The notes: a model not told the origin generated them from the letters alone. A stretch of DNA of 36,569 nucleotides from a virus (IMGVR_UViG_2684622554_000001), one strand, 5' to 3'. Numbered from the stretch's first letter, positions 647-35,063 are shown. Translations and numbers: made by a program.

Positions 647-673
647 AAAAAATAAGCCTGTGTAAGGGAGATT
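647..673. repeat. attL core, 27-bp P2-type attachment core (one mismatch to the attR copy)
   Basis: AAAAAATAAGCCTGTGTAAGGGAGATT matches the 35037..35063 copy at 26 of 27 positions (T at 659 versus C). It lies immediately next to the int 3' end, as in P2. Confidence 0.8.
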
Positions 674-752
674 TAGGGTGTCACCAGTAGGGGCTTTCAA
701 CGGTACAATGCGGGTTTGAGCGGCATAAATTACCACTGAAAGCCCTTAAACG

Positions 753-1766
753 TTACTCTACTGTGGACACTGTGTGGACACTCTCGACCTCAGTACCACC
801 TCTTAGCGGATTAAGAGAAATGGCGTCCTGAAGGTACTCTGGCGCAAAATGAGCGTAAACCATAGTTTGCTCAATCCGCGTGTGACCTAGTATCCGTTGT
901 AGCGTGATAATACTTCCTCCATTAATCATGAAATGAGTGGCAAAGCTGTGCCTTAGTGCATGTGTAGCTTGCCCCATTGGCAAATCCGGTTTTATTGCTT
1001 TCATTGTTCGTCTGAAGCGAGGGTAATCAGCATCAGGGAATAAAAAACCTCGTTTGTTATCCGCGATCATTTTGGCAACAGCCTCTGAGATCGGGACGGT
1101 GCGTGGTTTGTTTGTTTTCGTTTTAACAAACGTGACGCGGTTATGGATGATATTTTCTGCTTTCAAACGAGCTGCTTCTCCCCAACGTGCTCCAGTACTC
1201 AGGCAAAGAATCGCAATCTTTTTGTTGTCGCCGTCAAGAGCAGCAAGCAGTAAGGCAATTTCTTCCTGCGTGAGATAGCCTGTGTCTGGTTTTTCCTCCT
1301 TAAGCCTTTTTGTCCCTCTGATAGGGTGCTCACCAAAGAATAACTCCGCTTCAATCAGGGCTGTAAACATGCCGCTAATACATGTTAAATCACGATTGAT
1401 ACTCGAAGGTTTAATACCCTGACTTCTTCGGGTGGCGCAGTACTGGCTGATAAGCGATTTCGTAATTTGAAATGCGCATGGGTCATTCGTTATTTTTGTG
1501 AAGATTTCAATTTTCCCAAGATTAGATTTCCCATGCTCTTCGTGTTTACCCTTTAAATCCCACCAGATCTGTGTCAGCTCCGACAGACGTCGCTTGTCTG
1601 TTGGTTTTGATAGCCATTCTTTATTGTGGTGGTTGTACAACGTGTATTTCTCGAAAGCGACAGCTTCGCTTTTCTTATCAAACTTCCTACGGATGCGTTT
1701 TCCATTACGTCCAGTAGGGCGGATGTCCACTTCATATCGACCATCATCGAGTTTTTTGATTGCCAT
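753..1766 (-). CDS. int: Tyrosine integrase (P2 Int-like)
   Basis: 337 aa, the same length as P2 Int. C-terminal HALRHSFATHF and LGHTRIEQTMVYAH motifs fit the tyrosine recombinase R..HxxR..Y catalytic set. ATG at 1766 is preceded by a GGAGGG SD. Adjacent to the att core. Confidence 0.95.
   Translation of the reverse strand: MAIKKLDDGRYEVDIRPTGRNGKRIRRKFDKKSEAVAFEKYTLYNHHNKEWLSKPTDKRRLSELTQIWWDLKGKHEEHGKSNLGKIEIFTKITNDPCAFQITKSLISQYCATRRSQGIKPSSINRDLTCISGMFTALIEAELFFGEHPIRGTKRLKEEKPDTGYLTQEEIALLLAALDGDNKKIAILCLSTGARWGEAARLKAENIIHNRVTFVKTKTNKPRTVPISEAVAKMIADNKRGFLFPDADYPRFRRTMKAIKPDLPMGQATHALRHSFATHFMINGGSIITLQRILGHTRIEQTMVYAHFAPEYLQDAISLNPLRGGTEVESVHTVSTVE
763..781 (+). promoter_or_regulatory. 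Direct repeats TGTGGACAC x2, candidate Int arm-type binding sites
   Basis: TGTGGACAC at 763..771 and 773..781, inside the 3' end of int and next to the att core. The P2 arm-site consensus is recalled from memory. Confidence 0.45.
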
Positions 1767-1881
1767 CAGAAAACCCTCCGAGTGGTGTGTTTTTTTGCGA
1801 CTACTAATCGCTTTTTTCGTGGTGGCTGAAATTTAGCCACCAATAGTAGGCACTTGTGATGAATATATTCACGATGAATTG

Positions 1882-2181
1882 TTAACCAGTCTTTTGACCG
1901 GAGTGGGGCGACGTTGTTTCGTTTTGCCCAAAGTGTGCGAGAGCGGGCGCAATTTGCCCGGACTCAGGAGCGATCTGATTGGTCATGAACCATAAAGTGT
2001 ATTTGGTGAATTGTGGGGTCTGCAGGATGTTCATCATGACATCTGTTGGAGGTGTTGAACGACCACTTTCATAGTAACTCAGCGTGCCATACGGAACCCC
2101 TGTTAAATCAGCAAGTTGTTGTCTGCTCAAATACTCTGATTTTCGCATTAAGACTATCTTCTCGCTTATCGTGTTTGACAT
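1882..2181 (-). CDS. C: Immunity repressor C (HTH)
   Basis: 99 aa, the same length as P2 C. Helix-turn-helix-like LSRQQLADLTGVPYGTLSYYESG. Divergent from cox, between int and cox. Confidence 0.9.
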   Translation of the reverse strand: MSNTISEKIVLMRKSEYLSRQQLADLTGVPYGTLSYYESGRSTPPTDVMMNILQTPQFTKYTLWFMTNQIAPESGQIAPALAHFGQNETTSPHSGQKTG

Positions 2182-2260
2182 GGTGTTTAGATCTCAATAG
2201 TATTTAGTTTAGATGTAGATTGTTTAGTGCTTGGATGTGGGCACTAAAAGGCATTATAAG
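2175..2260. promoter_or_regulatory. Lysis/lysogeny switch: face-to-face early promoter Pe (rightward) and Pc (leftward), with TTTAG-type direct repeats as candidate C operators
   Basis: TTGACA at 2175..2180, 17-bp spacer, TAGTAT at 2198..2203 on the + strand. A perfect TATAAT on the - strand at 2253..2258. TTTAG repeats at 2186, 2203, 2208 and 2223. The convergent arrangement matches the known P2 switch. Confidence 0.55.
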
Positions 2261-2295
2261 ACATTAAACGCAATTCATGAGGGCTAGAGGACGAC

Positions 2296-2571
2296 ATGAG
2301 CAAGCAAGTAACACTCATGACTGATGCGATTCCTTATCAGGAGTTCGCAAAACTAATAGGAAAATCGACAGGAGCGGTTCGTCGGATGATCGATAAAGGA
2401 AAGCTGCCTGTAATTGATATGACCGATCCACAATCAGCTTCAGGTCGTGCAGGTGAATATTGGGTATACCTTCCGGCATGGAATAACGGACTAAAACTGG
2501 CTTATGAAAGCCGCCCTAAAGAGATTCGTGACGGCTGGTTGATGTGGTTAGGTCTCGGTGAACCACGTTAA
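2296..2571 (+). CDS. cox: Cox (excision directionality factor and Pc repressor)
   Basis: 91 aa, the same length as P2 Cox. ATG at 2296 with a GAGG SD. First gene of the rightward early operon. Confidence 0.9.
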   Translation: MSKQVTLMTDAIPYQEFAKLIGKSTGAVRRMIDKGKLPVIDMTDPQSASGRAGEYWVYLPAWNNGLKLAYESRPKEIRDGWLMWLGLGEPR

Positions 2572-2581
2572 GGAGAACCGT

Positions 2582-2752
2582 ATGAATGAGCCTCGTTGTA
2601 TTGCTCAGTTACTGCGTAACGAAAGCCCCAGGGCGATTGACTTCACCATCACCCACGGTAAGGGGCGTAAGGGAATCATTATCCGCACCAAAAAACAGAG
2701 TCCGTTAAAAAAGGCTCTGACCTTTCTGAAAAGCCGGAGGGTATGGAAATGA
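2582..2752 (+). CDS. Small early protein (P2 orf78 position)
   Basis: ATG at 2582 preceded by AAGGAG at 2570..2575. The track ORF begins at a GTG at 2558 inside cox. Basic 56-aa product. Confidence 0.5.
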   Translation: MNEPRCIAQLLRNESPRAIDFTITHGKGRKGIIIRTKKQSPLKKALTFLKSRRVWK

Positions 2753-3249
2753 CAGTGATGACGCTCAATCTCGTTGAAAAACAGCCAGCAGCTATGCGCC
2801 GGATAATTGGCAAGCATCTTGCCGTCCCTCGCTGGCAGGATACATGTGATTATTTTAATCAGATGATGGAGCGCGAACGGCTAACGGTTTGCTTTCATGC
2901 ACAGTTAAAACAGCGTCACGCAACGATGCGTTTTGAAGAAATGAACGACGTCGAACGTGAACGGCTGGTTTGTGCAATTGATGAATTGCGTGGGGCATTC
3001 TCAAAACGCCGTCAGGTCGGTGCAAGTGAGTATGCATATATTAGTTTTTTAACAGTCAGCCAGCGACGTACTTTATTTATGCACGCACGACTGACAGAAA
3101 AAGAATTCAACCAGCCGTACTGGCGAATTAATGAAGAATCATGTTACTGGCGTGATGCTTTATTCCGTGCATTACGTGAATTATTCAGTCTGTTTGAGTA
3201 TGCACCGACAATTCTGACATCGGTAAAACCAGAGCAATATCTGCATTAA
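2749..3249 (+). CDS. B: Replication protein B (helicase loader-like)
   Basis: 166 aa from the ATG at 2749 (GGAGG SD 8 nt upstream), matching the P2 B length. Position between cox and A. Confidence 0.8.
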   Translation: MTVMTLNLVEKQPAAMRRIIGKHLAVPRWQDTCDYFNQMMERERLTVCFHAQLKQRHATMRFEEMNDVERERLVCAIDELRGAFSKRRQVGASEYAYISFLTVSQRRTLFMHARLTEKEFNQPYWRINEESCYWRDALFRALRELFSLFEYAPTILTSVKPEQYLH

Positions 3250-3311
3250 GTAATTAACCAGAGTTTTTAACGCACTTAATTGTGCGGGGCTTCTTTTGCC
3301 TGGAGAAAGTC

Positions 3312-3536
3312 ATGCATACAGTTTCTGAAAATCAGTGCGGTAAATACGCATTACTGCTGCAACAGGCCAGAACCGAAGCACAGGCCGATGCAGCGACGCG
3401 CTTTTCTTCTCATCTTGACGCCATGATTCGCCACATCACAAAGGCGGAATTATCCCGCGTGGAGATAGTCGAGCTGCTCAGTCAGGAGTCGGAAAAATTT
3501 CACAATATCGGATTGTCTCGCGGGGAGGTGCTTTGA
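3312..3536 (+). CDS. Hypothetical early protein (P2 orf80 position)
   Basis: ATG at 3312 with a GGAG SD. The track ORF starts at a GTG at 3282. Stop overlaps the next start (TGATG). Confidence 0.5.
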
Positions 3537-3838
3537 TGTCCTGTTCTCGTTCAGTTGTATTACTGAATAACGCCTTAAAAATCGCCGTTATGAAAAATGG
3601 CGATTTATCTCTTATTCAACTTGGTCTTGATAAAGAAAAACGCGAAATAACTGAGTCTGTTATCGCGATTTATCAGAACGAATTAAATCTCCTGTCTGAT
3701 GTGGTCAATTTACTTGTTAAACGCGCTGTATTTCACAAGCAAATCTCCTCCGTGGATGAACTGACGAAATTAACGACAGAAATTGCCAGCTATTGCGCTG
3801 ATGAATTTAAAAAACTTAACGACAAAAGGAGCTGGTAA
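3536..3838 (+). CDS. Hypothetical early protein (P2 orf81 position)
   Basis: ATG at 3536 with a GGAGG SD. About 100 aa. Translationally coupled to its neighbours. Confidence 0.5.
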   Translation: MSCSRSVVLLNNALKIAVMKNGDLSLIQLGLDKEKREITESVIAIYQNELNLLSDVVNLLVKRAVFHKQISSVDELTKLTTEIASYCADEFKKLNDKRSW

Positions 3839-4062
3839 TGCCGGACAACGTAGATTTTATTCAGGAACAACAGGCTGAATTACTGGAGCGTCAGATTAAC
3901 GCGGCAAGGGTAAAACATTGCGGTGCTTCTGCGCTGATTTGCGAAGAGTGTGACGCGCCAATACCTGCTGCCCGTCGTGCGGCTTATCCGTCAGCCACGC
4001 GTTGTGTTTCCTGCCAGTCAGTCTTTGAAGCAAAAAACAAACATTACCGGAGAACGGCATGA
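3838..4062 (+). CDS. TraR/DksA-family C4 zinc-finger protein (P2 orf82 position)
   Basis: 74 aa with CEECDAPIP...x17...CVSCQ (CxxC-x17-CxxC). AAGGAG SD. Confidence 0.8.
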   Translation: MPDNVDFIQEQQAELLERQINAARVKHCGASALICEECDAPIPAARRAAYPSATRCVSCQSVFEAKNKHYRRTA

Positions 4063-4334
4063 GTATTCGTATTGAAATTGGCGAACGTTATGTCGTTACC
4101 AGTGACAGCTTTCAGTTTATTCTCCACGAGAAAAAGAGAGCGGAAAGCGGTAAAAACGCCGGTCAGGAATGGCTGGCGGTGGTTGGTTATTATCCGAAAT
4201 TAAGCCAGCTCGTTTCCGGCCTGATGCATCACGATATTCTGACCGGAAGCGCAAAGTCTTTTGCTGATTTAAACGCGCAGGTTGAGCAACTCAGCAAGCG
4301 TTGTTCAGAGGCTTTTGGCTCATATGGCCGTTAA
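4059..4334 (+). CDS. Hypothetical early protein (P2 orf83 position)
   Basis: 91-aa ORF, ATG at 4059 with a GGAG SD. Overlaps the A start. Confidence 0.5.
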   Translation: MSIRIEIGERYVVTSDSFQFILHEKKRAESGKNAGQEWLAVVGYYPKLSQLVSGLMHHDILTGSAKSFADLNAQVEQLSKRCSEAFGSYGR

Positions 4335-6600
4335 AGCCTCCGGGCGTTTTGTCCCTCCGTCAGCATTTGCTGCAGGCACCGGTAAGGCGTTTACCGGTGC
4401 TTATGCATGGAACGCGCCACGCGAGGCTGTCGGGCGCGAAAGACCCCTTACACGTGACGAGATGCGTCAGGTGCAAGGTGTTTTATCCACGATTAACCGC
4501 CTGCCTTACTTTTTGCGCTCGCTGTTTACGTCACGCTATGACTACATCCGGCGCAATAAAAGCCCGGTGCACGGGTTTTATTTCCTCACATCCACTTTTC
4601 AGCGTCGTTTATGGCCGCGCATTGAGCGTGTGAATCAGCGCCATGAAATGAACACCGACGCGTCGATGCTGTTTCTGGCTGAGCGTGACCACTATGCGCG
4701 CCTGCCGGGAATGAATGACAAGGAGCTGAAAAAGTTTGCCGCCCGTATCTCATCGCAGCTTTTCATAATGTATGAGGAACTCTGCGATGCCTGGGTGGAT
4801 GCGCATGGCGAGAAAGAATCGCTGTTTACGGATGAGGCGCAGGCTCACCTGTATGGTCATGTTGCTGGCGCTGCACGTGCTTTCAATATTTCCCCGCTCT
4901 ACTGGAAAAAATACCGTAAAGGGCAGATGACCACGAGGCAGGCATATTCTGCCATTGCCCGTCTGTTTAACGATGAGTGGTGGACTCATCAGCTTAAAGG
5001 CCAGCGTATGCGCTGGCATGAGGCGTTACTGATTGCTGTCGGGGAGGTCAATAAAGACCGTTCTCCTTATGCCAGTAAACATGCCATTCGTGATGTGCGT
5101 GCGCGCCGCCAGGCAAATCTGGAATTTCTTAAATCGTGTGACCTTGAAAACAAGGAAACCGGCGAGCGTATCGACCTTATCAGTAAGGTGATGGGCAGTA
5201 TTTCTAATCCAGAAATTCGCCGGATGGAGCTGATGAACACCATCGCCGGTATTGAGCGTTACGCTGCCGCAGAGGGTGATGTGGGGATGTTTATCACGCT
5301 GACCGCGCCGTCAAAGTATCACCCGACACGTCAGGTCAGAAAAGGCGAAAGTAAAACCGTCCAGCTAAATCACGGCTGGAACGATGAGGCATTTAATCCA
5401 AAGGATGCGCAGCGTTATCTCTGCCATATCTGGAGCCTGATGCGCACGGCATTCAAGGATAATGATTTACAGGTCTACGGTTTGCGTGTCGTCGAGCCAC
5501 ACCACGACGGAACGCCGCACTGGCATATGATGCTTTTTTGTAATCCACGCCAGCGTAACCAGATTATCGAAATCATGCGTCGCTATGCGCTCAAAGAGGA
5601 TGGCGACGAAAGAGGAGCCGCGCGAAACCGTTTTCAGGCAAAACACCTTAACCGGGGCGGTGCTGCGGGATATATCGCGAAATACATCTCAAAAAACATC
5701 GACGGCTATGCACTGGATGGTCAGCTCGATAACGATACCGGCAGACCTCTGAAAGATACTGCCGCGGCTGTTACTGCATGGGCGTCAACGTGGCGCATCC
5801 CGCAATTTAAAACGGTTGGTCTGCCGACAATGGGGGCTTACCGTGAACTACGCAAATTGCCGCGCGGCGTCAGCATTGCTGATGAGTTTGACGAGCGCGT
5901 CGAGGCTGCACGCGCCGCCGCAGACAGTGGTGATTTTGCGTTGTATATCAGCGCGCAGGGTGGGGCAAATGTTCCGCGCGATTGCCAGACTGTCAGGGTC
6001 GCCCGTAGTCCGTCGGATGAAGTTAACGAGTACGAGGAAGAAGTCGAGAGAGTGGTCGGCATTTACGCGCCGCATCTCGGCGCGCGTCATATTCATATCA
6101 CCAGAACGACGGACTGGCGCATTGTTCCGAAAGTGCCGGTCGTTGAGCCTTTGACTTTAAAAAGCGGCATCGCCGCGCCTCGGAGTCCTGTCAATAACTG
6201 TGGAAAGCTCACCGGTGGTGATACTTCGTTACCGGCTCCCACACCTTCTGAGCACGCCGCAGCAGTGCTTAATCTGGTTGATGACGGTGTTATCGAATGG
6301 AATGAGCCGGAGGTCGTGAAGGCGCTCAGGGGCGCATTAAAACACGGGCTGGGAACGCCAAATCGTCAGCAAAGAAACGGAAGCCCGTTAAAACCGCATG
6401 AAATTGCACCATCGGCCAGACTGACCCGGCCGGAACGATTGCAAATCACCCGTATCCGCGTTGACCTTGCTCAGAACGGTATCAGGCCGCAGCGATGGGA
6501 GCTTGAGGCGCTGGCGCGTGGGGCAACCGTAAATTATGACGGGAAAAAATTCACGTATCCGGTTGCTGATGAGTGGCCGGGGTTCTCGTTACCCATTTGA
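4324..6600 (+). CDS. A: Replication initiation endonuclease gpA (rolling-circle HUH nickase)
   Basis: 758 aa from the ATG at 4324 (the track start at 4282 is a TTG). Contains the HUH-type motif HWHMMLF. Size close to P2 A as recalled. Confidence 0.95.
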   Translation: MAVKASGRFVPPSAFAAGTGKAFTGAYAWNAPREAVGRERPLTRDEMRQVQGVLSTINRLPYFLRSLFTSRYDYIRRNKSPVHGFYFLTSTFQRRLWPRIERVNQRHEMNTDASMLFLAERDHYARLPGMNDKELKKFAARISSQLFIMYEELCDAWVDAHGEKESLFTDEAQAHLYGHVAGAARAFNISPLYWKKYRKGQMTTRQAYSAIARLFNDEWWTHQLKGQRMRWHEALLIAVGEVNKDRSPYASKHAIRDVRARRQANLEFLKSCDLENKETGERIDLISKVMGSISNPEIRRMELMNTIAGIERYAAAEGDVGMFITLTAPSKYHPTRQVRKGESKTVQLNHGWNDEAFNPKDAQRYLCHIWSLMRTAFKDNDLQVYGLRVVEPHHDGTPHWHMMLFCNPRQRNQIIEIMRRYALKEDGDERGAARNRFQAKHLNRGGAAGYIAKYISKNIDGYALDGQLDNDTGRPLKDTAAAVTAWASTWRIPQFKTVGLPTMGAYRELRKLPRGVSIADEFDERVEAARAAADSGDFALYISAQGGANVPRDCQTVRVARSPSDEVNEYEEEVERVVGIYAPHLGARHIHITRTTDWRIVPKVPVVEPLTLKSGIAAPRSPVNNCGKLTGGDTSLPAPTPSEHAAAVLNLVDDGVIEWNEPEVVKALRGALKHGLGTPNRQQRNGSPLKPHEIAPSARLTRPERLQITRIRVDLAQNGIRPQRWELEALARGATVNYDGKKFTYPVADEWPGFSLPI

Positions 6601-6860
6601 GTAAAAACACAACGTGATTTGATATGGCATTGAATGGCTTATGCGGAGCAGTTATGGGGCAGCAGAAGGTCAATAGCATGCTGAATTAGAAGGCTAAATG
6701 CTATTGAGTGACTAGCATGTCGGTAAGGACGGCCGTTTGATCCGGGTCATAAAAGGCCATCCATTTAGTCTAATAAAATCATTGCGGGTAACCTTATGTC
6801 GACGCATAATTCATCTTGAGCGAAGTCTTGTCAGTCTTTCATCGTATTGATGATGGGCGC

Positions 6861-6893
6861 AAAAAAACCACCCTGGCAGGTGGTTTTTTTGTT
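6861..6893. terminator. Bidirectional rho-independent terminator
   Basis: AAAAAAACCACC-CTGGCA-GGTGGTTTTTTT: perfect 6-bp GC stem flanked by an A-run and a T-run. Sits after A (+) and after the small ORF (-). Confidence 0.7.
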
Positions 6894-6902
6894 TGAAGCA
6901 TA

Positions 6903-7016
6903 TTAAAGCATAATGCTGACATTGATATTACTGACGTTTACTGACAAACCACTCGGACTACCGTTTGGATAGCCAAAGAGGGCCAGAACGAGCATGCAGT
7001 AATAGCATTTCTTCAT
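6903..7016 (-). CDS. Putative 37-aa small hydrophobic protein (MKKCYYCMLVLALFGYPNGSPSGLSVNVSNINVSIML)
   Basis: ATG at 7016..7014 preceded by AGGAGG with a 4-nt spacer. Followed by the 6861..6893 terminator. Only strongly signalled ORF in the tin/old slot. No recognisable family. Confidence 0.3.
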   Translation of the reverse strand: MKKCYYCMLVLALFGYPNGSPSGLSVNVSNINVSIML

Positions 7017-7494
7017 ATTGCCTCCTGTAAGTAGAGGGCAACTTCCACCGGTATATGCGCTTCTTAGGTGGAATGACTTTTGAGCGAAGTCTTGCCCTGA
7101 AATAATGCTCTGTTTAAACGCAAAGTGATTTGGCATATCACCGAACAGAGAGCCGGAAAAACACAACATATAGTATGTCGTTGTTTCTAGACATACATTC
7201 TATGTTGTGTAACAAGGGCTTTGCATTAAACATGTTTGAGATTTTATTGATGTAGCTCAAAGTAAAAAACAGAGACTACGGTTGATAAGGTCTTGAAAGC
7301 AATGTAAATTTTTTAAAGTTGCCAATTGCTTAAAAATGTACAGTTGCGGTATGGCGTACTTAAAAAGCTATGCATGCAACAAGTGAATGTTTTTGCATGC
7401 GTTGGGGATGTCCGTTCAGGCTGCGTGCGGTCAGGACTGGTGCGGATCCATAGTATCTATGCAACTGCATTAAAACCGCCCCGTGAAGCGGGCG

Positions 7495-7513
7495 GGCGAG
7501 GCGGGGAAAGCAC
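7495..7513. other. cos site (19-nt P2/P4-type cohesive end GGCGAGGCGGGGAAAGCAC)
   Basis: Exact match to the P2/P4 cohesive-end sequence as recalled. Embedded in a GC-rich palindromic context. Confidence 0.8.
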
Positions 7514-7657
7514 TGCGCGCAGCCCGTCAAGAATAAAAAACTCTCTTGCAGGTAGAAAACATTCTGTTAACATTTGTCTGGATGAAGTTTAAGTTAGAAA
7601 TTTATGTTAATGAACTGATTGATACTTATGTTTTGTCAATAATTTAGGAATGTTAAG

Positions 7658-8794
7658 ATGACAAGCTATGTTACATGGGCAAATAAAGGTGGAATAGGTA
7701 AATCAACATTATCTTTCCAATTGGCGTTAAAATACGCGAGATTAAACACGAATAAAAAAGTAATCATAATAGATATGAGCCCTCAGTGTGATGTCTCTAG
7801 AATGTTATTGGGGGGAGGGCATTTTAACGGTGAGCAAAAGATCTTGGATAGAATGACCTCTAATCCAAGGTTGACAATTTACCGGTATCTTGAGGCCTGT
7901 GTTAATGATGTTCCTTCTGGGAGGGGATGGCCTGATTCATTATCATACTTAATTGAACCTAATTCTTTTCGAGACGAAAACGCAGAAAAATTGCCTGATA
8001 ATATTAGTATGGTCTGTGGAGATTTCGACTTAGAGAGGGTTACTCATAGTTTAGATAATTTGCCACAACCTCAACCAAGAGGCGGGCGTGTTCCGTCGGG
8101 TGCTCATTACTCAGCATATTTATTGCCACGCACTTTTCTACGGAAAATGGTGGAGGACTTTGAGCGCGAATACAGGGATGTGACAATTTTTATTGATACA
8201 GATCCATATTATTCGGTAGTAACAACACATCTGGGGCTTCTGGCTGCAGACAGGTTGATTTCGGCATACTCTCCTTCATCTCAAGCAAGCCAGTATGCAG
8301 TATATCGTAGCTTAGAGTTTCTATACGATCCTAATTATGGACTGGTGCAAGAGGTTAATACACAGAGAGCAATATATGGTACCCCTTGGTTTGATAGTTT
8401 AAATAATATAATTACAACACCGAATATATCTGTTGCAAATCTTTATATGGTAGTAAGTAACATGAATACGCCTCAGGCTGGAAGAGGACAACCTCCATAC
8501 AGCCAACCCCAAAAACTACATAGACAATCGCAACAAGAAGTTATATCTAGAATTAATGACACATTAAGTAGTTTGGGGATCGCGCATGATTATGTTCATG
8601 ACTATTTATGGGATCTCAAGAGATTAGGTTTGATTTGTGATTATAATGGTTTTGATTTAGCAACAATTCAATTAGGGGAAAATTATGCGGAACCAAGTGA
8701 TGATGGTAATTATTATGTAAATACTACAGGTGGAACACCGATCCAATTATCATCCTATAATGCTAGGATCGAAACTGTTACATCAAAACTATAA
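7658..8794 (+). CDS. Cargo A: ParA/MinD-type P-loop ATPase with about 180-aa C-terminal extension of unknown function
   Basis: 378 aa. Deviant Walker A (K10-GGIGKST17), A' motif VIIIDMSPQ, Walker B-like TIFIDTDP. AT-rich relative to the phage backbone. Own terminator. No adjacent parB-like or centromere partner. Confidence 0.85.
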   Translation: MTSYVTWANKGGIGKSTLSFQLALKYARLNTNKKVIIIDMSPQCDVSRMLLGGGHFNGEQKILDRMTSNPRLTIYRYLEACVNDVPSGRGWPDSLSYLIEPNSFRDENAEKLPDNISMVCGDFDLERVTHSLDNLPQPQPRGGRVPSGAHYSAYLLPRTFLRKMVEDFEREYRDVTIFIDTDPYYSVVTTHLGLLAADRLISAYSPSSQASQYAVYRSLEFLYDPNYGLVQEVNTQRAIYGTPWFDSLNNIITTPNISVANLYMVVSNMNTPQAGRGQPPYSQPQKLHRQSQQEVISRINDTLSSLGIAHDYVHDYLWDLKRLGLICDYNGFDLATIQLGENYAEPSDDGNYYVNTTGGTPIQLSSYNARIETVTSKL

Positions 8795-8801
8795 GAACTA
8801 G

Positions 8802-8822
8802 GGGAGCAAATGCTCCCTTTCT
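8802..8822. terminator. Rho-independent terminator between cargo A and Q (convergent)
   Basis: GGGAGC-AAAT-GCTCCC hairpin followed by TTTCT. Confidence 0.5.
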
Positions 8823-8866
8823 ATATATGGGTTATTAATTACCCGCTTATATAAATATTGAAGAAA

Positions 8867-9886: not shown

Positions 9887-10079
9887 TGCGTATTTTCATG
9901 AAAGGAGATCACTCAATAACTTCCATCGAGATCGGGTAATAACATTTGAACAGATCGCTGAATAACATCGATGGAGATCACTTTTGACTCATTTTGTTAT
10001 TCAGTGATCTCCATCAATGTTATTGGAACTTCACAGGTGTGTTGATCTGTATCTTTTGCCATTCCGGTAAAGGATACCT

Positions 10080-25615: not shown

Positions 25616-25629
25616 TCCTCCATTTCAAT

Positions 25630-26001: not shown

Positions 26002-26004
26002 TTT

Positions 26005-26532: not shown

Positions 26533-26821
26533 GTTGTATGATATCTGGAGTGAGCTAACGTATCTATGGCACAGAGTAAAACTTAATCTGACAGTCTGCT
26601 CTGTACCAAAAGCGGAACTTGCTTACATCGTGCTATGTTAGTTTACTGGGAGCAGGTCATTATCTACGTGATTGCTATTTTATAACTTGGATAAAATGGG
26701 GATGAACATAATATCGAGACAGTGATTGCAGAGTTAGTCATTATAGGCGGGCATCAGTTCATGCCGGATCTCTAATGCAATTATCAGGAAAATATGGGAC
26801 GTTTTATCAATCAGAGGAAAT

Positions 26822-28048
26822 ATGTTACAGTTCAGCTTTGTATCAAATGACGTTGTTATGACTTACGACGGTGACAGCGGAGAACAAATAATTTGGGTTT
26901 GGGAGAGTTTAAATAAATTTCAAACAGTATGCATTTCACGAATTTTTAACTTTCAACTCCAGGATTTGAGAAACCCACCGTCAACCGTTCAGGATTTTAA
27001 TGATTACGAATATTCCTTTAATTTTGGCACGCTTAATAATGAATACATAACAGTTCCGGGACGGATTCTAAGCATTAATCGAGATGTCCTTATACATAAG
27101 TCCATCAAGCTTGAAAGGAAAGTATTTGCGTCAGAACGCAACGTCTCCATTTTTGGTCGGCTTTCAAAACTACTCGAACACACTAATCCCATCATCATCG
27201 GAGGAGATAAGCCGGAAGCTATACCAAAAAGCGTATTCCAGGAGTTGCAAAGTAAATTCCCCAACACAGGGGAACTGGATCGCTATGCTAATGCAAGGGT
27301 TCACGCTATTCTCGCAGGTTATCTTGATGGTATGAAAGATGCTCGCGAACGGTATGAACATTACCTAAACAGAAAAACAGTGATCAGAAAAACCGACAAA
27401 CTGGATTTAGAAGTTTTAAATAAGCTCGAAATTGAGAAATATACACTCATAAGAGACATTATCCAGGATGCGTTGAATAACAAAACTAACTTGTCTGAAG
27501 ATGACTGGCAGAGCCTGATGATACCCTTCATCACATTACTTTTTCCAAAATATATCAAGGTCCTCGAGAAGGTTAAAATTTTCGACTATTACTCTAATCC
27601 TTCGGCTAAAACAAATCGGTTTATAGACATTGCACTGGTGGATGCAAACGGCAACCTTGATATCATCGAAGTCAAAAAGCCGTTTGATGATAAGATCCTT
27701 CGCAAGACGCCCTATCGCGATAACTATATTCCTACATCAGAACTTAGCGGCGGTATTATGCAGGCTGAAAAGTATATTTTTCATTTATCTAAATGGGGTG
27801 TTAAGGGTGAAAAAGAGCTTACGAATGCCTACAAGAATTCTCTGCCAGCGGGAATGTGTATTCGTATATCTAACCCAAAAGCCATCATCATTGTCGGGCG
27901 CGATCAGATAGCGAACGGTAACATGACCGACGGTCAGTTGCTTGATTTTGAGATAATCAAACGTAAGTACGCCAACATGATAGACATATTGACGTACGAC
28001 GACCTGTTGCGTCGACTTAATAATACGATTGAAGCATTGAAAGGTTGA
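26822..28048 (+). CDS. Cargo C (Z/fun slot): protein with C-terminal PD-(D/E)xK nuclease signature, possibly Shedu/DUF4263-like
   Basis: 408 aa, AT-rich. RFID269IALVD...DIIE283VK285 with Q314 downstream. Own SD (GAGGAAAT). Located between G and FI. Confidence 0.85.
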   Translation: MLQFSFVSNDVVMTYDGDSGEQIIWVWESLNKFQTVCISRIFNFQLQDLRNPPSTVQDFNDYEYSFNFGTLNNEYITVPGRILSINRDVLIHKSIKLERKVFASERNVSIFGRLSKLLEHTNPIIIGGDKPEAIPKSVFQELQSKFPNTGELDRYANARVHAILAGYLDGMKDARERYEHYLNRKTVIRKTDKLDLEVLNKLEIEKYTLIRDIIQDALNNKTNLSEDDWQSLMIPFITLLFPKYIKVLEKVKIFDYYSNPSAKTNRFIDIALVDANGNLDIIEVKKPFDDKILRKTPYRDNYIPTSELSGGIMQAEKYIFHLSKWGVKGEKELTNAYKNSLPAGMCIRISNPKAIIIVGRDQIANGNMTDGQLLDFEIIKRKYANMIDILTYDDLLRRLNNTIEALKG

Positions 28049-28333
28049 ATGCCCATGAGGTTCACACCCACAACGGGGAGCAGGTCACTTCCTCTTGTTT
28101 GATTGACATACCATAACGTCTGCTTTTGGCTCAAAGCAGACTGTCTGATTTGATAGCTTTTGGGCTATGTAAATTGTCAGTTGAAAAATGAGTGAGTACA
28201 AATCAGGACGGGCGGCGAGTTGCCCGCCTTTTCTTTAATCTGTTGTTTCATCCACTGACCAGTCAGGTCAAATAGCGTCTTATGCACTGCCCAACAGAAA
28301 ATAGTTGCACCCATTAACCACGGAGTTAAACGG

Positions 28334-29524
28334 ATGAGTGACTATCATCACGGCGTGCAGGTGCTGGAGATTAACGACGGCACCCGCGTCATTTCCACCG
28401 TATCCACCGCCATTGTTGGCATGGTCTGCACGGCCAGCGATGCGGATGCGGAAATCTTCCCCCTCAATAAACCGGTGCTGATTACCAATGTGCAGAGCGC
28501 AATTGCAAAGGCCGGTAAAAAAGGCACGCTGGCGGCGTCGTTACAGGCCATCGCTGACCAGTCAAAACCGGTCACCGTTGTCGTACGTGTGGAAGACGGC
28601 ACCGGCGACGACGAGGAAACGAAACTCGCGCAGACCGTTTCCAATATCATCGGCACTACCGACGAAAACGGTCAGTACACCGGACTGAAAGCCCTGCTGG
28701 CGGCGGAGTCGGTAACCGGTGTTAAACCGCGTATTCTCGGTGTGCCGGGGCTGGATACCAAAGAGGTGGCTGTTGCACTGGCATCAGTCTGTCAGAAGCT
28801 GCGCGCTTTCGGGTATATCAGCGCATGGGGCTGTAAAACCATTTCCGAGGTGAAAGCTTACCGCCAGAATTTCAGCCAGCGTGAGCTGATGGTCATCTGG
28901 CCGGATTTCCTCGCATGGGATACGGTCGCCAGTACCACCGCCACCGCGTATGCCACCGCCCGTGCGCTGGGTCTGCGCGCTAAAATCGACCAGGAGCAGG
29001 GCTGGCATAAAACGCTGTCCAACGTCGGGGTGAACGGTGTTACCGGCATCAGCGCATCTGTATTCTGGGATTTGCAGGAGTCCGGTACTGATGCTGACCT
29101 GCTTAACGAGTCAGGTGTCACTACGCTGATTCGCCGCGACGGTTTCCGCTTCTGGGGTAACCGTACCTGCTCTGATGACCCGCTGTTCCTCTTTGAAAAC
29201 TACACCCGCACCGCGCAGGTGTTGGCCGACACGATGGCTGAGGCGCACATGTGGGCGGTGGATAAGCCCATCACCGCAACGCTGATTCGCGACATCGTTG
29301 ACGGCATCAATGCCAAATTCCGTGAGCTGAAAACAAACGGCTATATCGTGGATGCGACCTGCTGGTTCAGCGAAGAATCCAACGATGCGGAAACCCTCAA
29401 GGCCGGAAAACTGTATATCGACTACGACTATACACCGGTGCCTCCTCTCGAAAACCTGACCCTGCGCCAGCGTATTACCGATAAATACCTGGCAAATCTG
29501 GTCACCTCGGTTAACAGCAATTAA
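28334..29524 (+). CDS. FI: Tail sheath protein gpFI
   Basis: 396 aa, the same length as P2 gpFI. GGAG SD. Confidence 0.95.
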   Translation: MSDYHHGVQVLEINDGTRVISTVSTAIVGMVCTASDADAEIFPLNKPVLITNVQSAIAKAGKKGTLAASLQAIADQSKPVTVVVRVEDGTGDDEETKLAQTVSNIIGTTDENGQYTGLKALLAAESVTGVKPRILGVPGLDTKEVAVALASVCQKLRAFGYISAWGCKTISEVKAYRQNFSQRELMVIWPDFLAWDTVASTTATAYATARALGLRAKIDQEQGWHKTLSNVGVNGVTGISASVFWDLQESGTDADLLNESGVTTLIRRDGFRFWGNRTCSDDPLFLFENYTRTAQVLADTMAEAHMWAVDKPITATLIRDIVDGINAKFRELKTNGYIVDATCWFSEESNDAETLKAGKLYIDYDYTPVPPLENLTLRQRITDKYLANLVTSVNSN

Positions 29525-29536
29525 GGAGCCTGACCG

Positions 29537-30054
29537 ATGGCAATGCCGCGCAAACTCAAGTTAATGAACGTCTTTCTGAACGGCTACAGCTATCAGGGCG
29601 TCGCAAAGTCCGTCACGCTGCCAAAACTGACCCGTAAGCTCGAAAACTATCGCGGTGCGGGGATGAACGGCAGCGCACCGGTAGACCTCGGCCTTGATGA
29701 CGATGCGCTGTCAATGGAGTGGTCGCTCGGGGCTTCCCGGATTCGGTTATCTGGGAGCTTTACGCCGCAACCGGTGTGGATGCCGTGCCGATTCGTTTTG
29801 CTGGCTCTTACCAGCGCGACGATACCGGCGAAACGGTGGCCGTCGAAGTGGTCATGCGTGGACGTCAGAAAGAAATCGACACCGGAGAGGGTAAACAGGG
29901 AGAAGACACCGAGTCGAAAATCTCCGTGGTCTGCACCTATTTCCGGCTGACGATGGACGGTAAGGAGCTGGTCGAAATCGACACCATCAACATGATTGAG
30001 AAGGTGAACGGCGTCGACCGGCTGGAGCAACACCGCCGTAATATCGGCCTGTGA
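29537..30054 (+). pseudogene. FII: Tail tube protein gpFII with an apparent 1-bp deletion (G run 29729..29732)
   Basis: Split into 29537..29950 and 29719..30054. Combined 518 nt versus 519 nt for the 172-aa P2 gpFII. Junction SLG|GFPDSVIW requires GGGGG where GGGG is present. Confidence 0.85.
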
Positions 30055-30110
30055 TTTTCATACGGTCAGCCAGGCTGACCGGTTAACCCTGATTCAGAAG
30101 TGAGAAAACC

Positions 30111-30386
30111 ATGGACAAAGAAAATGTCATTACCCTGGAAAATCCGGTCAAACGTGGTGAGCAGGTTATCGAACAGGTCACGCTGATGAAACCTAATGCC
30201 GGGACGCTGCGCGGTGTCAGTCTGGCTGCGGTCGCAAACTCCGAAGTCGATGCACTGATTAAAGTGCTGCCGCGCATGACGGCACCGATGCTGACCGAGC
30301 AGGAAGTCGCCGCGCTGGAACTGCCTGACCTTGTGGCGCTGGCCGGTAAGGTGGTCGGTTTTTTGTCGCCGAACTCGGTGCAGTAA
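30111..30386 (+). CDS. E: Tail assembly chaperone gpE
   Basis: 91 aa, the same length as P2 gpE. Ends just after the T6G slippery run. Confidence 0.9.
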   Translation: MDKENVITLENPVKRGEQVIEQVTLMKPNAGTLRGVSLAAVANSEVDALIKVLPRMTAPMLTEQEVAALELPDLVALAGKVVGFLSPNSVQ

Positions 30387-30538
30387 CGTTTCCTAAAAAT
30401 CTGTCGGTCGATGACCTGATGGCGGATGTGGCAGTGATATTTCACTGGCCGCCATCAGAACTGTATCCCATGAGTCTGACCGAACTCATCACATGGCGCG
30501 AAAAGGCGCTCCGGCGAAGCGGAAACACGAATGAGTAA
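30111..30538 (+). CDS. E': gpE+E' produced by programmed -1 translational frameshift at TTTTTTG (30359..30365)
   Basis: The -1 frame from the slippery site is open to TAA at 30536..30538 and encodes ...ITWREKALRRSGNTNE. Would give 142 aa, matching the known P2 E+E' arrangement. Confidence 0.75.
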
Positions 30539-32977
30539 CAATGTAAAATTACAGGTATTGCTCAGGGCTGTTGACCAGGCATCCCGCCCGTTTAAATCCA
30601 TCCGCACAGCGAGCAAATCGCTGTCGGGGATATCCGGGAAACACAAAAATCACTGCGCGAGCTGAACGGTCAGGCATCCCGTATTGAGGGATTTCGCAAG
30701 ACCAGTGCACAGCTCGCCGTGACTGGTCAGGAACTGAAAAAAGCCAGACAGGAAGCCGCAGCTCTGGCTGTCCAGTTTAAAAATACTGAACGACCGACAA
30801 ATGCACAGGCAAAGGCAATGGAAGCCGCGCGTAAAAATGCGTCTGAGTTACAGGCGAAATATAACAGCCTGAGATTGTCGGTACAGCGCCAGCGTCAGGA
30901 ATTGAGTCAGGCGGGTATTAATACCCGCAATCTGGCGCATGATGAACGAGGGCTGAAAAACCGTATCAGTGAAACCACCGCACAGCTTAACCGTCAGCGC
31001 GACGCGCTGGCGCGTGTCAGTGCGCAACAGGCAAAACTTAATGCAGTAAAACAGCGTTATCAGGCCGGAAAGGAACTGGCTGGAAATATGGCCTCGGTAG
31101 GCGCTGCCGGTGTGGGGATTGCGGCGGCGGGAACGATGGCCGGAGTTAAGCTGCTGATGCCCGGTTATGAGTTTGCGCAGAAAAACTCAGAATTGCAGGC
31201 CGTGCTGGGTGTGGCAAAAGACTCCGCCGAAATGACCGCACTCCGCAAGCAGGCGCGCCAGCTCGGCGACAATACCGCAGCCTCGGCGGATGATGCAGCC
31301 GGTGCACAGATTATCATTGCGAAAGCCGGCGGGGATGCTGCGGCTATTCAGGCGGCAACGCCGGTAACGCTGAATATGGCACTGGCGAATCAGCGGTCGA
31401 TGGAAGAAAACGCGCAACTGTTGCTGGGGACTAAGGCATCCTTTCAACTGTCAAATGATGATGTCAGCCATGTGGGCGACGTGTTGTCGGCAACGATGAA
31501 TAAGTCGGCGGCTGATTTTCAGGGACTCAGTGATGCACTGACTTACCTCGGTCCGGTTGCGAGGACGGCAGGTGTAAGTCTTGAACATGCTGCAGCCATG
31601 ACAGGTGTGCTGCATGACAATAACATCAGGGGGTCAATGGCGGGTACGGGTAGTAGTGCCGTTGTCACCCGATTACAGGCTCCGACAGGGAAAGCATGGG
31701 AAGCACTAAAAGAGCTTGGCGTTAAAACCTCGGACAAAAAGGGAAATATGCGTCCGTTGTTCACCATTCTGAAAGAGATTCAGGTCAGCTTTGATAAACA
31801 CAAGCTGGGAACGTCTCAGAAGGGGGAATACCTTAAAACCATTTTTGGTGAGGAAGCCCTGAAATCAGCGAACGTTTTACTGGCAGCGGCAGCAAGCGGA
31901 AAACTGGATAAGCTGACCGCCACGCTGAAAGCATCGGACGGTAAAACGGAAGAGCTGGTTAAAATCATGCAGGATAACCTCGGTGGTGACTTTAAGGAGT
32001 TTCAGTCCGCTTATGAGGCGGTGGGGACTGACCTGTTTGACCAGCAGGAAGGCACACTGCGTAAGCTCACTCAGACGGCCACAAAGTATGTGTTAAAACT
32101 CGACGGCTGGATCCAGAAAAACAAATCACTGGCGTCAACCATCGGCCTCATTGCCGGTGGCGCGCTGGCGCTTATTGGCATCATCGGTGCAATTGGTCTT
32201 GTAGCCTGGCCGGTTATCACCGGCATCAATGCCATCATCGCGGCAGCAGGCGCAATGGGTGCAATCTTCACGACGGTTGGTAGTGCCGTTATGACGGCCA
32301 TCGGGGCGATTAGCTGGCCGGTTGTGGCCGTGGTGGCTGCAATTGTCGCCGGGGCGTTGCTTATCCGTAAATACTGGGAGCCTGTCAGCGCATTCTTTGG
32401 CGGTGTGGTGGAAGGGCTGAAAGCGGCATTTGCGCCGGTGGGAGAACTGTTCACGCCACTGAAGCCGGTGTTTGACTGGCTGGGCGAAAAGTTACAGGCC
32501 GCGTGGCAGTGGTTTAAAAACCTGATTGCCCCGGTTAAAGCCACCCAGGACACCCTGAACCGTTGCCGTGACACGGGCGTCATGTTCGGGCAGGCACTGG
32601 CTGACGCACTGATGCTGCCGCTTAATGCGTTCAACAAACTGCGCAGTGGTATTGACTGGGTGCTGGAAAAACTCGGTGTTATCAACAAAGAGTCAGACAC
32701 ACTTGACCAGACCGCCGCAAGGACTAATGCCGCCACGTATGGCACCGGTGGTTATATTCCGGCGACCAGCTCTTATGCAGGCTATCAGGCTTACCAGCCG
32801 GTCACAGCACCGGCTGGCCGCTCTTATGTGGACCAGAGTAAAAACGAATATCACATCAACCTGACGGGCGGTACTGCGCAGGGGACACAGCTCGACCGCC
32901 AGTTACAGGATGCGCTCGAAAAATACGAGCGGGATAAACGTGCGCGCGCCCGTGCCAGCATGATGCATGACGGTTAA
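30531..32977 (+). pseudogene. T: Tape measure protein gpT with an apparent 1-bp deletion (G run 30626..30629)
   Basis: ATG at 30531 encodes MSNNVKLQVLLRAVDQASRPFKSIRTASKSLSG, then a stop. The main ORF continues in the adjacent frame (30719..32977). Total 2447 nt versus 2448 nt for the 815-aa P2 gpT. Confidence 0.9.
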
Positions 32978-32991
32978 GGAGGTGACTAAAA

Positions 32992-33471
32992 ATGATGCTC
33001 GCGTTAGGTATGTTTGTTTTTATGCGCCAGACGCTGCCACACCAGACCATGCAGCGTGAATCAGATTATCGCTGGCCGTCAAATTCCCGTATCGGTAAAC
33101 GGGATGCCTACCAGTTTCTCGGTGTTGGCGAGGAAAACATGACGCTTGCCGGTGTGCTTTATCCCGAACTGACCGGCGGAAAGCTGACGATGACCACGCT
33201 CAGGCTGATGGCAGATGAAGGCCGGGCGTGGCCGTTGCTGGATGGCACCGGCATGATTTACGGCATGTATGTCATCAGCAGGGTGAGTGAAACAGGGAGT
33301 ATTTTCTTTGCAGACGGCACACCCCGGAAAATTGATTTTACGCTGTCGCTCACCCGCGTTGATGAATCACTGGCCGCGCTTTATGGCGATATCGGTAAAC
33401 AGGCGGAATCGCTCATCGGTAAGGCTGGCAGTATAGCGACTAAATTCACGGATATGACGGAGGCGGGATAA
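32992..33471 (+). CDS. U: Tail protein gpU
   Basis: 159 aa, the same length as P2 gpU. AAGGAGG SD. Confidence 0.9.
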   Translation: MMLALGMFVFMRQTLPHQTMQRESDYRWPSNSRIGKRDAYQFLGVGEENMTLAGVLYPELTGGKLTMTTLRLMADEGRAWPLLDGTGMIYGMYVISRVSETGSIFFADGTPRKIDFTLSLTRVDESLAALYGDIGKQAESLIGKAGSIATKFTDMTEAG

Positions 33472-34634
33472 TGCTGGATGCGCTGACATTTGATGCAGGC
33501 AGTACGCTGACGCCGGATTACATGCTGATGCTCGACAGCAGGGATATTACCGGCAATATCAGCGACCGTCTGATGAGCATGACCCTGACGGATAACCGGG
33601 GCTTTGAGGCTGACCAGCTTGATATTGAACTGAACGATGCCGACGGGCAGGTCGGGCTGCCGGTTCGTGGCGCAGTCCTGACGGTGTATATCGGCTGGAA
33701 AGGTTTTGCCCTGGTATGCAAAGGGAAATTCACCGTTGATGAGGTTGAACACCGGGGCGCGCCGGATGTGGTCACCATCCGCGCCCGGAGTGCAGATTTC
33801 CGCGGGACGCTCAATTCCCGCCGGGAAGGCTCCTGGCATGACACCACGCTCGGTGCGATTGTTGAGGCGATAGCCTCCCGTAACAAGCTGGAAGCCAGTG
33901 TCGCTCCGTCACTGGCCGGAATTAAAATCCCGCACATCGACCAGTCGCAGGAGTCTGATGCAAAATTCCTGACCCGCCTTGCTGAACGCAACGGCGGTGA
34001 GGTGTCGGTAAAAATGGGAAAACTGTTGTTTCTCAAAGTGGGGCAGGGGGTGACGGCAAGCGGTAAAAAAATCCCGCAGATTACCATCACCCGCAGCGAC
34101 GGCGACCGTCATCATTTTGCGATTGCTGACCGTGGAGCCTATACCGGCGTAACGGCAAAGTGGTTACACACCAAAGACCCGAAGCCGCAAAAGCAGAAGG
34201 TAAAACTGAAACGCAAAAAGAAAGAGAAACACCTGCGCGCACTGGAGCACCCGAAAGCGAAACCGGTCAGGCAGAAGAAAGCGCCTAAAGTACCGGAAGC
34301 GCGCGAAGGTGAATACATGGCCGGTGAGGCTGACAACGTTTTTGCCCTGACCACGGTATATGCCACAAAAGCGCAGGCCATGCGCGCCACTCAGGCGAAG
34401 TGGGATAAACTGCAACGGGGCGTTGCGGAGTTCTCCATCAGCCTGGCTACCGGTCGGGCAGATATTTACACGGAAACACCGGTCAGAGTGTCAGGCTTTA
34501 AGCGCGTCATAGACGAGCAGGACTGGACAATCACTAAGGTGACACATTTTCTGAATAATAGCGGCTTCACGACGTCCTTGGAGCTTGAGGTCAGGCTTTC
34601 TGATGTGGAGTACGAAACAGAAGATGATGAGTGA
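33471..34634 (+). CDS. D: Tail protein gpD
   Basis: 387 aa, the same length as P2 gpD. Overlaps the U stop. Confidence 0.9.
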   Translation: MLDALTFDAGSTLTPDYMLMLDSRDITGNISDRLMSMTLTDNRGFEADQLDIELNDADGQVGLPVRGAVLTVYIGWKGFALVCKGKFTVDEVEHRGAPDVVTIRARSADFRGTLNSRREGSWHDTTLGAIVEAIASRNKLEASVAPSLAGIKIPHIDQSQESDAKFLTRLAERNGGEVSVKMGKLLFLKVGQGVTASGKKIPQITITRSDGDRHHFAIADRGAYTGVTAKWLHTKDPKPQKQKVKLKRKKKEKHLRALEHPKAKPVRQKKAPKVPEAREGEYMAGEADNVFALTTVYATKAQAMRATQAKWDKLQRGVAEFSISLATGRADIYTETPVRVSGFKRVIDEQDWTITKVTHFLNNSGFTTSLELEVRLSDVEYETEDDE

Positions 34635-34715
34635 TGTTTTTATTTTATCTGTTTGTTTTATAAGGATAAATTAACTAAAATGGCACCATCAACAAAACCG
34701 GAAGAGGTGCTCGCG

Positions 34716-34934
34716 ATGTTTCATTGTCCTTTATGCCAGCATGCCGCACATGCGCGTACAAGTCGCTATATCACTGACACGACAAAAGAGCGTTATCACC
34801 AGTGCCAGAACGTGAATTGCAGCGCCACGTTCATCACTTATGAGTCGGTACAGAGATACATCGTGAAGCCGGGAGAAGTCCACGCCGTGAGGCCGCACCC
34901 GTTGCCGTCAGGGCAGCAAATTATGTGGATGTAA
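34716..34934 (+). CDS. ogr: Late-gene transcription activator Ogr (zinc-finger)
   Basis: 72 aa from MFHCPLCQHAAHARTSRY. CxxC...CxxxxC cysteines. GAAGAGG SD. Last phage gene before attR. Confidence 0.9.
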   Translation: MFHCPLCQHAAHARTSRYITDTTKERYHQCQNVNCSATFITYESVQRYIVKPGEVHAVRPHPLPSGQQIMWM

Positions 34935-34945
34935 TTACAAACAGA

Positions 34946-34973
34946 AAGCCCCTCAGTCGAGGGGCTTTTTTTG
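34946..34973 (+). terminator. Rho-independent terminator after ogr
   Basis: AAGCCCCTC-AGTC-GAGGGGCTT hairpin followed by TTTTTTT. Confidence 0.7.
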
Positions 34974-35036
34974 TCGATGTGGTCAAAGTGTGGACTTGAC
35001 CAGAAATAAATCCTTTTATTTCAATTTGTTGTACGT

Positions 35037-35063
35037 AAAAAATAAGCCCGTGTAAGGGAGATT
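35037..35063. repeat. attR core, 27-bp P2-type attachment core (AAAAAATAAGCCCGTGTAAGGGAGATT)
   Basis: Direct repeat of the 647..673 copy. Forms the 3' terminus of cyaR. Confidence 0.85.

Follow-up and report, generated by a model that had tools for sequence, protein, structure and literature searches.

Background

P2-like phages (Peduovirus) carry accessory genes in three textbook moron regions, TO (tin/old), orf30 and Z/fun (PMC6823313, PMC3091744). In the literature these hotspots hold defence genes, one element can have cargo in several of them, and such genes persist in defective P2s (PMC9122126, PMC9519451, PMC13586616); among P2s that carry defence systems, about 10% do so in more than one hotspot (Rousset 2022; Vassallo 2022; PMC13586616), and a second, fun-containing P2 defence locus holds three of the systems reported by Vassallo et al. 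The viable P2-like phage R18C, with genes of unknown function in all three moron regions (PMC6823313), resembles in this respect the element described here, a prophage occupying positions 647-35063 of a 36,569-nucleotide (nt) stretch of DNA (IMGVR_UViG_2684622554_000001; this whole stretch is referred to as the window). Its cargo comprises an orphan ParA-like ATPase gene between cos and the portal gene Q, a gene for a protein of 247 amino acids (aa) between S and V, and the Shedu gene sduA at Z/fun. A preliminary description had presented the element as a defective, domesticated carrier of a defence island. Comparison with related assemblies leads to a different picture: the element is in all likelihood a P2-like (Peduovirus) prophage of Escherichia coli CP013837.1 that was functional until recently, and its cargo genes are independent modules which reassort among sibling prophages.

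Identity of the prophage

The window matches CP013837.1 (GCA_001513655.1) at 100% in both of its loci compared, over 10822-31565 (L032) and 16822-36569 (L041), and this genome is thus identified as its source. Integration is at the yegR / cyaR-yegQ site. The limits previously given for the prophage coincide with the outer ends of attL and attR, and all features named in the preliminary description were found in the sequence at their coordinates.

At the nucleotide level the element is about 98% identical to phage P2, with which it aligns in five collinear DNA blocks of 93-98% identity. All P2 essential proteins, used as queries in tblastn, are present in P2 order at 88-100% identity. The gene order int/C/cox, A, Q-P / O-N-M-L and tail operons, the cos site (19/19 nt) and the att core are those of P2-like phages. 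The lysogeny module of int, C and cox is intact as had been stated, with genes of full length and products 99.4-100% identical to those of P2. Another likeness is the presence of AT-rich non-essential genes in three variable positions. The element differs from P2 in lacking tin, old, orf30 and fun, in the empty A side of cos, in the cargo between cos and Q, in the replaced C-terminus of Q, and in an insertion sequence (IS), ISEc12, that splits P from Q.

Single-nucleotide deletions in the late-gene region

Relative to P2, the R, J, FII and T genes of the window show 1-nt deletions. The tail frameshifts noted before are indeed present in the deposited R, J, H, FII and T genes, but they most likely do not represent decay, being missing in all siblings and in the short-read assembly SRR933383. 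From the sibling CP091506.1 the window differs by no substitution over 16730-31559, yet by seven 1-nt gaps, all of which are losses of one G in G runs of the + strand. The same deletions set the window apart from nine other assemblies. SRR933383, which apparently derives from the same clone as the source, aligns with it over 11,713 bp, chromosomal flank included, with no mismatches; its four gaps are exactly the four G deletions in that span, over which other siblings carry about 75 substitutions relative to the source.

Two of the seven deletions are intergenic, which is not the signature of relaxed selection on genes. G runs account for 94 of the 517 homopolymer runs of at least 3 nt in the stretch (C 77, A 205, T 141). 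With its missing G restored, H encodes a 642-aa tail fibre, as in siblings. An exact look-up of the truncated J fragment in public assemblies found none on record, a result that is weak alone and consistent with a private frameshift. Because all seven changes are single losses in G runs, unaccompanied by substitutions, intergenic in two cases and missing in the assembly of the same clone, they are almost certainly homopolymer consensus errors of the assembly and not gene decay.

The substitutions separating the window from CP091506.1 over 12468-31559 (n = 29) all fall within 14939-16729 in the O/N/M region, and the next 15 kb have none. This pattern suggests a recent recombination event in the capsid genes. 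The tail fibre gene H contains, at 24622-25081, two internal copies of a sequence of about 330 bp, which are ~88% identical and shifted by 132 bp; siblings have them too.

Association of cargo genes in sibling prophages

Indexing of exact proteins in the assembly collection gave 157 blocks for the ParA-like protein, 573 for the 247-aa protein and 36 for this Shedu allele. All three occur in the same backbone at yegR/yegQ in at least five independent assemblies, including the source. The other carriers of the trio, CP091506.1, GCA_032693745.1, ERZ27265310 and ERR13369730, have an intact P/Q junction, intact R, J, H, FII and T, and no IS.

Outside this lineage the partners vary. The exact 247-aa protein was examined in ten contigs. 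At A-Q, at least two of these have the ParA-like gene, the window's own record ends inside the IS, and the other seven carry RT, FRG, an ABC-ATPase, a 1330-aa protein and others. In the same contigs Z/fun holds Shedu in three, and in the rest other genes, including FRG, DUF2971 and small unknown genes. Two of eight contigs with the exact ParA-like protein have no S/V cargo, both of them at the pflA-side att site; in all, the ParA-like gene was found at two further att sites, with other integrases. In RefSeq, sduA lies between the tail fibre assembly and sheath genes in 53 E. coli genomes and the S/V gene is present in 18, with no common accession among the 15 matches listed for each.

Since each cargo gene has varied partners, and the ParA-like gene also occurs without the S/V gene, the genes are modules that combine independently of one another in sibling prophages, a pattern described in PMC13586616, and the trio is a lineage haplotype shared by descent. 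The expected co-occurrence was thus found in at least five assemblies, but within one lineage, and each gene occurs with other partners too. As for whether the genes act independently or together, which had been left open, the data fit independent modules, and joint action is not favoured by partners that differ between prophages.

A truly deleted P2-like remnant that keeps the ParA-like gene was observed at 2096-14746 of locus L027 (GCA_050170175.1). It comprises int, C, cox, B, A, the ParA-like gene, Q and a truncated P, fused directly to U, D and ogr.

Table 1. Positions of prophage features and flanking genes in the window
Feature	Position	Strand	Remarks
yegR	1-318		Flanking host gene
attL	647-673		P2 attP core AAAAAATAAGCCCGTGTAAGGGAGATT with one mismatch; P2 alignment begins at 646
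int	753-1766	-	337/337 aa, 99.4% vs P2 (tblastn)
C (immunity repressor)	1882-2181	-	100% vs P2, full length (tblastn)
cox	2296-2571	+	100% vs P2, full length (tblastn)
Replication gene A	4324-6600	+	P2 A residues 1-755 of 761 align, 98%
Block	6588-7465		878 bp; replaces P2 orf91-tin-old
A-side segment of A-Q (tin/old) hotspot	6601-7494		0.9 kb without open reading frame (ORF), no cargo, guanine-cytosine (GC) fraction 0.42
cos	7495-7513		GGCGAGGCGGGGAAAGCAC, 19 nt, identical to P2
Block	7514-8891		1378 bp; replaces P2 20-226 between cos and Q
Orphan ParA-like ATPase gene	7658-8794	+	378 aa, GC 0.38, between cos and Q
Terminator-like hairpin	8802-8817		Between convergent ParA-like and Q genes; GGGAGCATTTGCTCCC as printed for the - strand
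Portal gene Q	8867-9886	-	339 aa (P2 344); P2 Q residues 1-339 align, 97.6%
ISEc12 (IS21 family)	9887-12467	+	2581 bp; istA 10080-11621, istB 11633-12382
Terminase large subunit P	12472-14244	-	590/590 aa, 99.8% vs P2; stop codon kept by duplication
Seven 1-nt G deletions in G runs	19923 (R), 23031 (J), 25577 (H), 26698 and 28214 (intergenic), 29729 (FII), 30626 (T)	+	
Block	20620-21648		Replaces P2 orf30
Terminator-like hairpin after S	20768-20790	+	End of O operon; 10-bp stem, then T run
S/V slot cargo	20822-21565	-	247-aa ORFan, predicted all-helical, phrog_12680, GC 0.33
Block	26621-28114		Replaces P2 fun(Z)
sduA (Shedu)	26822-28048	+	408 aa, GC 0.40, Z/fun slot
attR	35037-35063		Identical to P2 attP core; overlaps cyaR 3' end
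yegQ	35208-36569		Flanking host gene

ISEc12 at the P/Q junction

The IS reported at P/Q does exist in the assembly, placed exactly at the P-stop/Q-start junction. Its proteins have the Pfam domains rve and Mu-transpos_C_2 (IstA) and IstB_IS21 (IstB) of the IS21 family, the copy is 99.9% identical to annotated ISEc12, and the inverted repeats begin TGCGTATT at both ends. The 5-bp target duplication CTCAT (9882-9886 and 12468-12472) corresponds to P2 1217-1221, where the P stop and Q start overlap. Q keeps its ATG, its native GGAG Shine-Dalgarno sequence is replaced by IS-end sequence, and 2.6 kb of antisense IS separate P from Q. The insertion would thereby remove the Q ribosome-binding site together with the transcriptional and translational coupling to P, and is predicted to exert strong polarity on portal expression, in which case there would probably be no portal and no virions.

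ISEc12 at this junction was not found in any sibling or in any of the 5,426 RefSeq complete E. coli genomes examined, a set that includes neither CP013837.1 nor CP091506.1. The absence of CP013837.1 may reflect exclusion for excess frameshifts. In a search of this set with the whole element no genome exceeded 88% coverage, and the ISEc12 matches, being at other positions, are uninformative on the P/Q insertion. Sequences flanking the IS are 100% identical to an intact sibling. With the frameshifts explained as consensus errors, this single insertion is the only credible damage, and it does not amount to evidence of selection for retention.

In the sibling locus L044 (GCA_021657315.1) an IS3-type transposase (rve) lies between the tail fibre assembly gene and sduA, at 6775-8003, so IS matches in the prophage lineage are not unique to the window.

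Variable regions and the Z/fun slot

All three moron regions are non-P2 in the window by alignment to P2. The view that the three variable slots are occupied or remodelled therefore holds in that each differs from P2, but there is no cargo at tin/old in the strict sense, the site on the A side of cos. The cargo genes are AT-rich single-gene modules, as had been noted, with GC fractions well apart from the 0.55-0.58 of the late genes. They had also been credited with their own signals. Hairpin terminators do flank them, but promoter scans around the genes gave no excess over shuffled expectation, which leaves promoters of their own unproven. Overall, the cargo is horizontally acquired and located in the known variable regions of the family, as in many relatives.

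The Z/fun cargo can be assigned most precisely. Its product matches PADLOC SduA (PDLC04067, 1e-219) over the full length and Pfam SduA_C (PF14082, 3e-33) at residues 224-396, the DUF4263 PD-(D/E)xK nuclease domain, and is identical at 407 of 408 residues to EcSduA of PDB 8PS4/8PS5, the difference being E119D. By this near identity the gene is taken to encode EcSduA Shedu, a bona fide defence protein. EcSduA is a tetrameric nuclease with a DNA-end clamp (PDB 8PS4, 8PS5, 8PS6); alone it suffices when cloned and gives >30,000-fold fewer T2 and T6 plaques without abortive infection (Loeff et al.). The window SduA is likewise a single-gene system, with no difference of substance. PD-T4-8, a DUF4263 gene from ECOR31 validated by Vassallo et al., has a length of 1227 bp, the same as sduA here; the two are likened by family and length, not by sequence.

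The S/V slot

The S/V gene product belongs to PHROG 12680 (6e-165), a family of unknown function. Homology to P2 Orf30 was considered and rejected, as there is none and Orf30 is phrog_2407. Neither the protein nor 49 relatives matched Pfam, NCBIfam or PADLOC, HEPN profiles included, and the family profile searched against PDB gave noise only. An exhaustive profile search yielded 337 representative relatives, mostly of ~240 aa, or about 340 clusters at 50% identity. In 50 relatives, which are 13-40% identical to the window protein, only N35, N75, R126 and H131 are invariant, and N127 is nearly so. R126-N-I-L-T-H131 (RNxxxH) conforms to the HEPN-type Rx4-6H motif. The structure model is all-helical and of low confidence (predicted local distance difference test, pLDDT, 56.7).

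Two contexts of the wider family were examined. In one of them, L052 (GCA_964412195.1, 5066-8669), the gene for a distant member begins 23 bp past the end of an MmeI-type restriction-modification (RM) gene, an arrangement that suggests an operon; the other was uninformative, and a further large protein search for the family gave no names or domains. On the basis of the invariant Rx4H motif and the RM neighbour, we consider the chances roughly even that the 247-aa protein is a HEPN-like RNase that would serve as an effector of the abortive-infection or toxin-like type. From the HEPN abortive-infection and toxin RNases (AbiD/F, AbiV, AbiU2, HEPN-MNT) it differs in having neither a HEPN Pfam or PADLOC match nor an adjacent antitoxin-like gene. 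R18C has a 741-bp ORF between S and V (PMC6823313). As tblastn of the 247-aa protein in the phage collection was empty, this ORF is probably a different gene, or else R18C is missing from the collection.

The A-Q hotspot on both sides of cos

The final few codons of gene A are unlike P2, and the same 3' end is found in many E. coli prophages. In the A-side segment there is no ORF of more than 88 aa, no protein-family match and no Rfam match. A 933-bp A-side query occurs in many E. coli genomes (~1250 records in bands of at least 95% identity); the best listed matches are 99.5-100% identical, with no gene annotated there by PGAP. Part of the segment was also found, unannotated, in an isolated P2-like phage. 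By these matches the segment represents a common ORF-less haplotype that is not peculiar to this prophage.

On the other side, identity with P2 continues for 7 bases beyond cos and then stops. The replaced block contains the ParA-like gene, the shared hairpin and a new Q 3' end, and it lies at the extreme left end of the packaged genome. The distance from cos to a probe near the Q 3' end is 1386 bp in 10/10 ParA-like carriers and 140-218 bp in 13/13 non-carriers, the latter a spacing that leaves no room for a gene. Among the 23 elements examined, cargo between cos and Q is thus limited to the ParA-like module. Q has the 339-aa form with a replaced C-terminal tail in all ParA-like carriers, and the gene and this variant portal 3' end have jointly entered the Q side of cos by recombination. 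In the available portions of the P2/P4 hotspot papers (Rousset 2022; Vassallo 2022; PMC13586616), A-Q is handled as one hotspot and the cos-Q sub-slot is not set apart.

The encoded protein has Pfam matches to AAA_31 (4e-10) and CbiA, nothing past the generic P-loop in Pfam or NCBIfam, and no PADLOC match. The deviant Walker A motif of the ParA/MinD class is intact (K10-GGIGKST17). An AlphaFold2 model (pLDDT 91.7) searched with Foldseek against PDB retrieved Soj, McdA, ParA and MinD with probability 1.0, at 12-16% identity, target template modelling (TM) scores of 0.65-0.76 and with large insertions. The NCBIfam model ParA_partition (NF041546) gives 26 bits against a cutoff of 180 bits, matching only the P-loop stretch 9-45. 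No ORF for a ParB or centromere-binding partner exists between cos and the gene or between the gene and Q, none was seen in any other context, and the homologues have no constant neighbour in eight other contexts. Both the partner gene and the model score of a type I partition system (ParA-ParB-parS) are therefore lacking. The protein appears as system #160 'AAA_31/CbiA', with 11 occurrences, in Table S5B of Rousset et al.

Members of this family have 377-378 aa and are ~50% identical over the full length across E. coli, Pseudomonas, Burkholderia and myxobacteria. They are always found in cargo slots of P2-like phages, P4-like satellites or small integrative islands. Homologues 50-87% identical lie in P4-like satellite hotspots (Klebsiella and Serratia) and in small islands (Burkholderia, Cronobacter and Pseudomonas), beside AbiE, CBASS and resolvases. 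In a P4-like satellite of Klebsiella quasipneumoniae (L010-L012, 5540-8137), a 78%-identical ParA-like gene lies between delta and int, 28 bp after a gene for a 477-aa DUF8370 (PF28123) protein, and the pair may be a two-gene variant. DUF8370 as an obligate partner was rejected, as it is missing in the window and in other contexts.

Flanks of the prophage

The gene for the CyaR/RyeE small RNA (35040-35125, - strand; Rfam 100.7 bits, the only Rfam match in the window) overlaps attR, so the att core of the prophage supplies the cyaR 3' end. Between yegR and attL, a segment of 169 bp (324-492) is present in the window and in one sibling (L025) and missing in three others (L024, L028 and L030), and might represent a small insertion of the repeat type.

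Discussion

A decaying, domesticated element, which the host keeps for its lysogeny module and three defence cargo genes, would agree with the frameshifts and IS of the deposited sequence next to intact cargo and int/C/cox. PMC13586616 describes defective P2 elements that have conserved their defence genes, and the L027 remnant is a real deletion that spared the ParA-like gene. For the window prophage this is nevertheless very unlikely. All seven indels, two of them intergenic, are -1 changes in G runs of one strand, set in ~15 kb without a substitution relative to a sibling and missing in every other assembly, that of the same clone included. Siblings with the trio are intact, and the IS, flanked by sequence identical to an intact sibling, was not seen in the siblings or RefSeq genomes examined. 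Real structural-gene lesions shared or fixed among strains were not found, and nothing in the data shows long-term domestication. Cooperation or co-selection of the three cargo genes as a single defence set, functionally linked across slots, is barely credible: recurrence of the trio in the same backbone of at least five independent assemblies speaks for it, but these belong to one near-identical lineage at one att site, the far more numerous 247-aa protein pairs with many cargos, the ParA-like gene is found without the S/V gene, the listed Shedu and S/V RefSeq matches share no accession, and EcSduA works alone when cloned.

Several points weigh against our reading of a recently functional prophage with exchangeable and in part defensive cargo. 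The deletions were judged by comparison between assemblies and not from raw reads, and their clustering in 10.7 kb is unexpected if errors arise throughout a genome; likewise, IS polarity on Q is predicted, not measured. Among 50,697 deposited phage genomes, tblastn found no match for the 247-aa protein and only distant ParA matches for the ParA-like protein, so we infer virion transmission of ParA-carrying phages only from the occurrence at three or more att sites. For the ParA-like and 247-aa genes no defence phenotype is known, and no published test of either was found in the available text of the literature searched. The HEPN assignment combines one motif with a model of low pLDDT and no HEPN profile match. 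Finally, partition-type genes in the A-Q hotspot may, as suggested by Rousset et al., serve plasmid maintenance and not defence. Applied here, the ParA-like gene would maintain or position an excised or replicating element or a plasmid state. The ParA/MinD fold with its intact KGGIGKST motif agrees with such a role, as do identity of ~50% to proteins of distant genera, which is atypical of fast-evolving sensors, and location in P4-like satellites, which can exist as plasmids, and beside resolvases and integrases. It is opposed by the missing ParB or centromere partner, by the low ParA_partition score and by slots that otherwise hold defence genes (AbiE and CBASS neighbours). Nor is a plasmid state known for P2. 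Maintenance is on this evidence rather unlikely, yet a serious rival, and we lean slightly to an anti-mobile-element role by association. Orphan ParA/Soj ATPases of integrative islands, such as Soj of PAPI-1, are presumably comparable and offer a lead: they share the ParA fold, the lack of ParB and the position at an extreme element end adjoining the circularisation junction, while the window protein is distant in sequence and has ~120 extra residues (insertions and a C-terminal extension).

In this arrangement, the A side of cos is empty and a ParA/MinD-fold ATPase occupies the Q side, the orf30 slot contributes a helical RNxxxH protein as putative HEPN-type RNase and abortive-infection or toxin-like effector, and the Z/fun slot holds EcSduA, which by published work blocks T2 and T6. 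It is possible, if short of probable, that one or both uncharacterised genes represent a new single-gene anti-phage or anti-mobile-element system, and the phrog_12680 family may be a previously unrecognised HEPN-like effector family.

Five seemingly broken tail genes that are likely homopolymer errors of one long-read-era assembly indicate that 'defective' or 'domesticated' is an unsafe conclusion from a single assembly. The established picture of P2 hotspots, of which the known A-Q and Z/fun sites hold cargo here, remains unchanged. What remains of interest are two cargo families and a separate cos-Q sub-slot, which divides the A-Q hotspot into two physically distinct sites, one on each side of cos. 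One small element thus offers two testable candidate genes for defence or competition, encoding the ParA-like and the RNxxxH proteins, beside EcSduA as an understood control.

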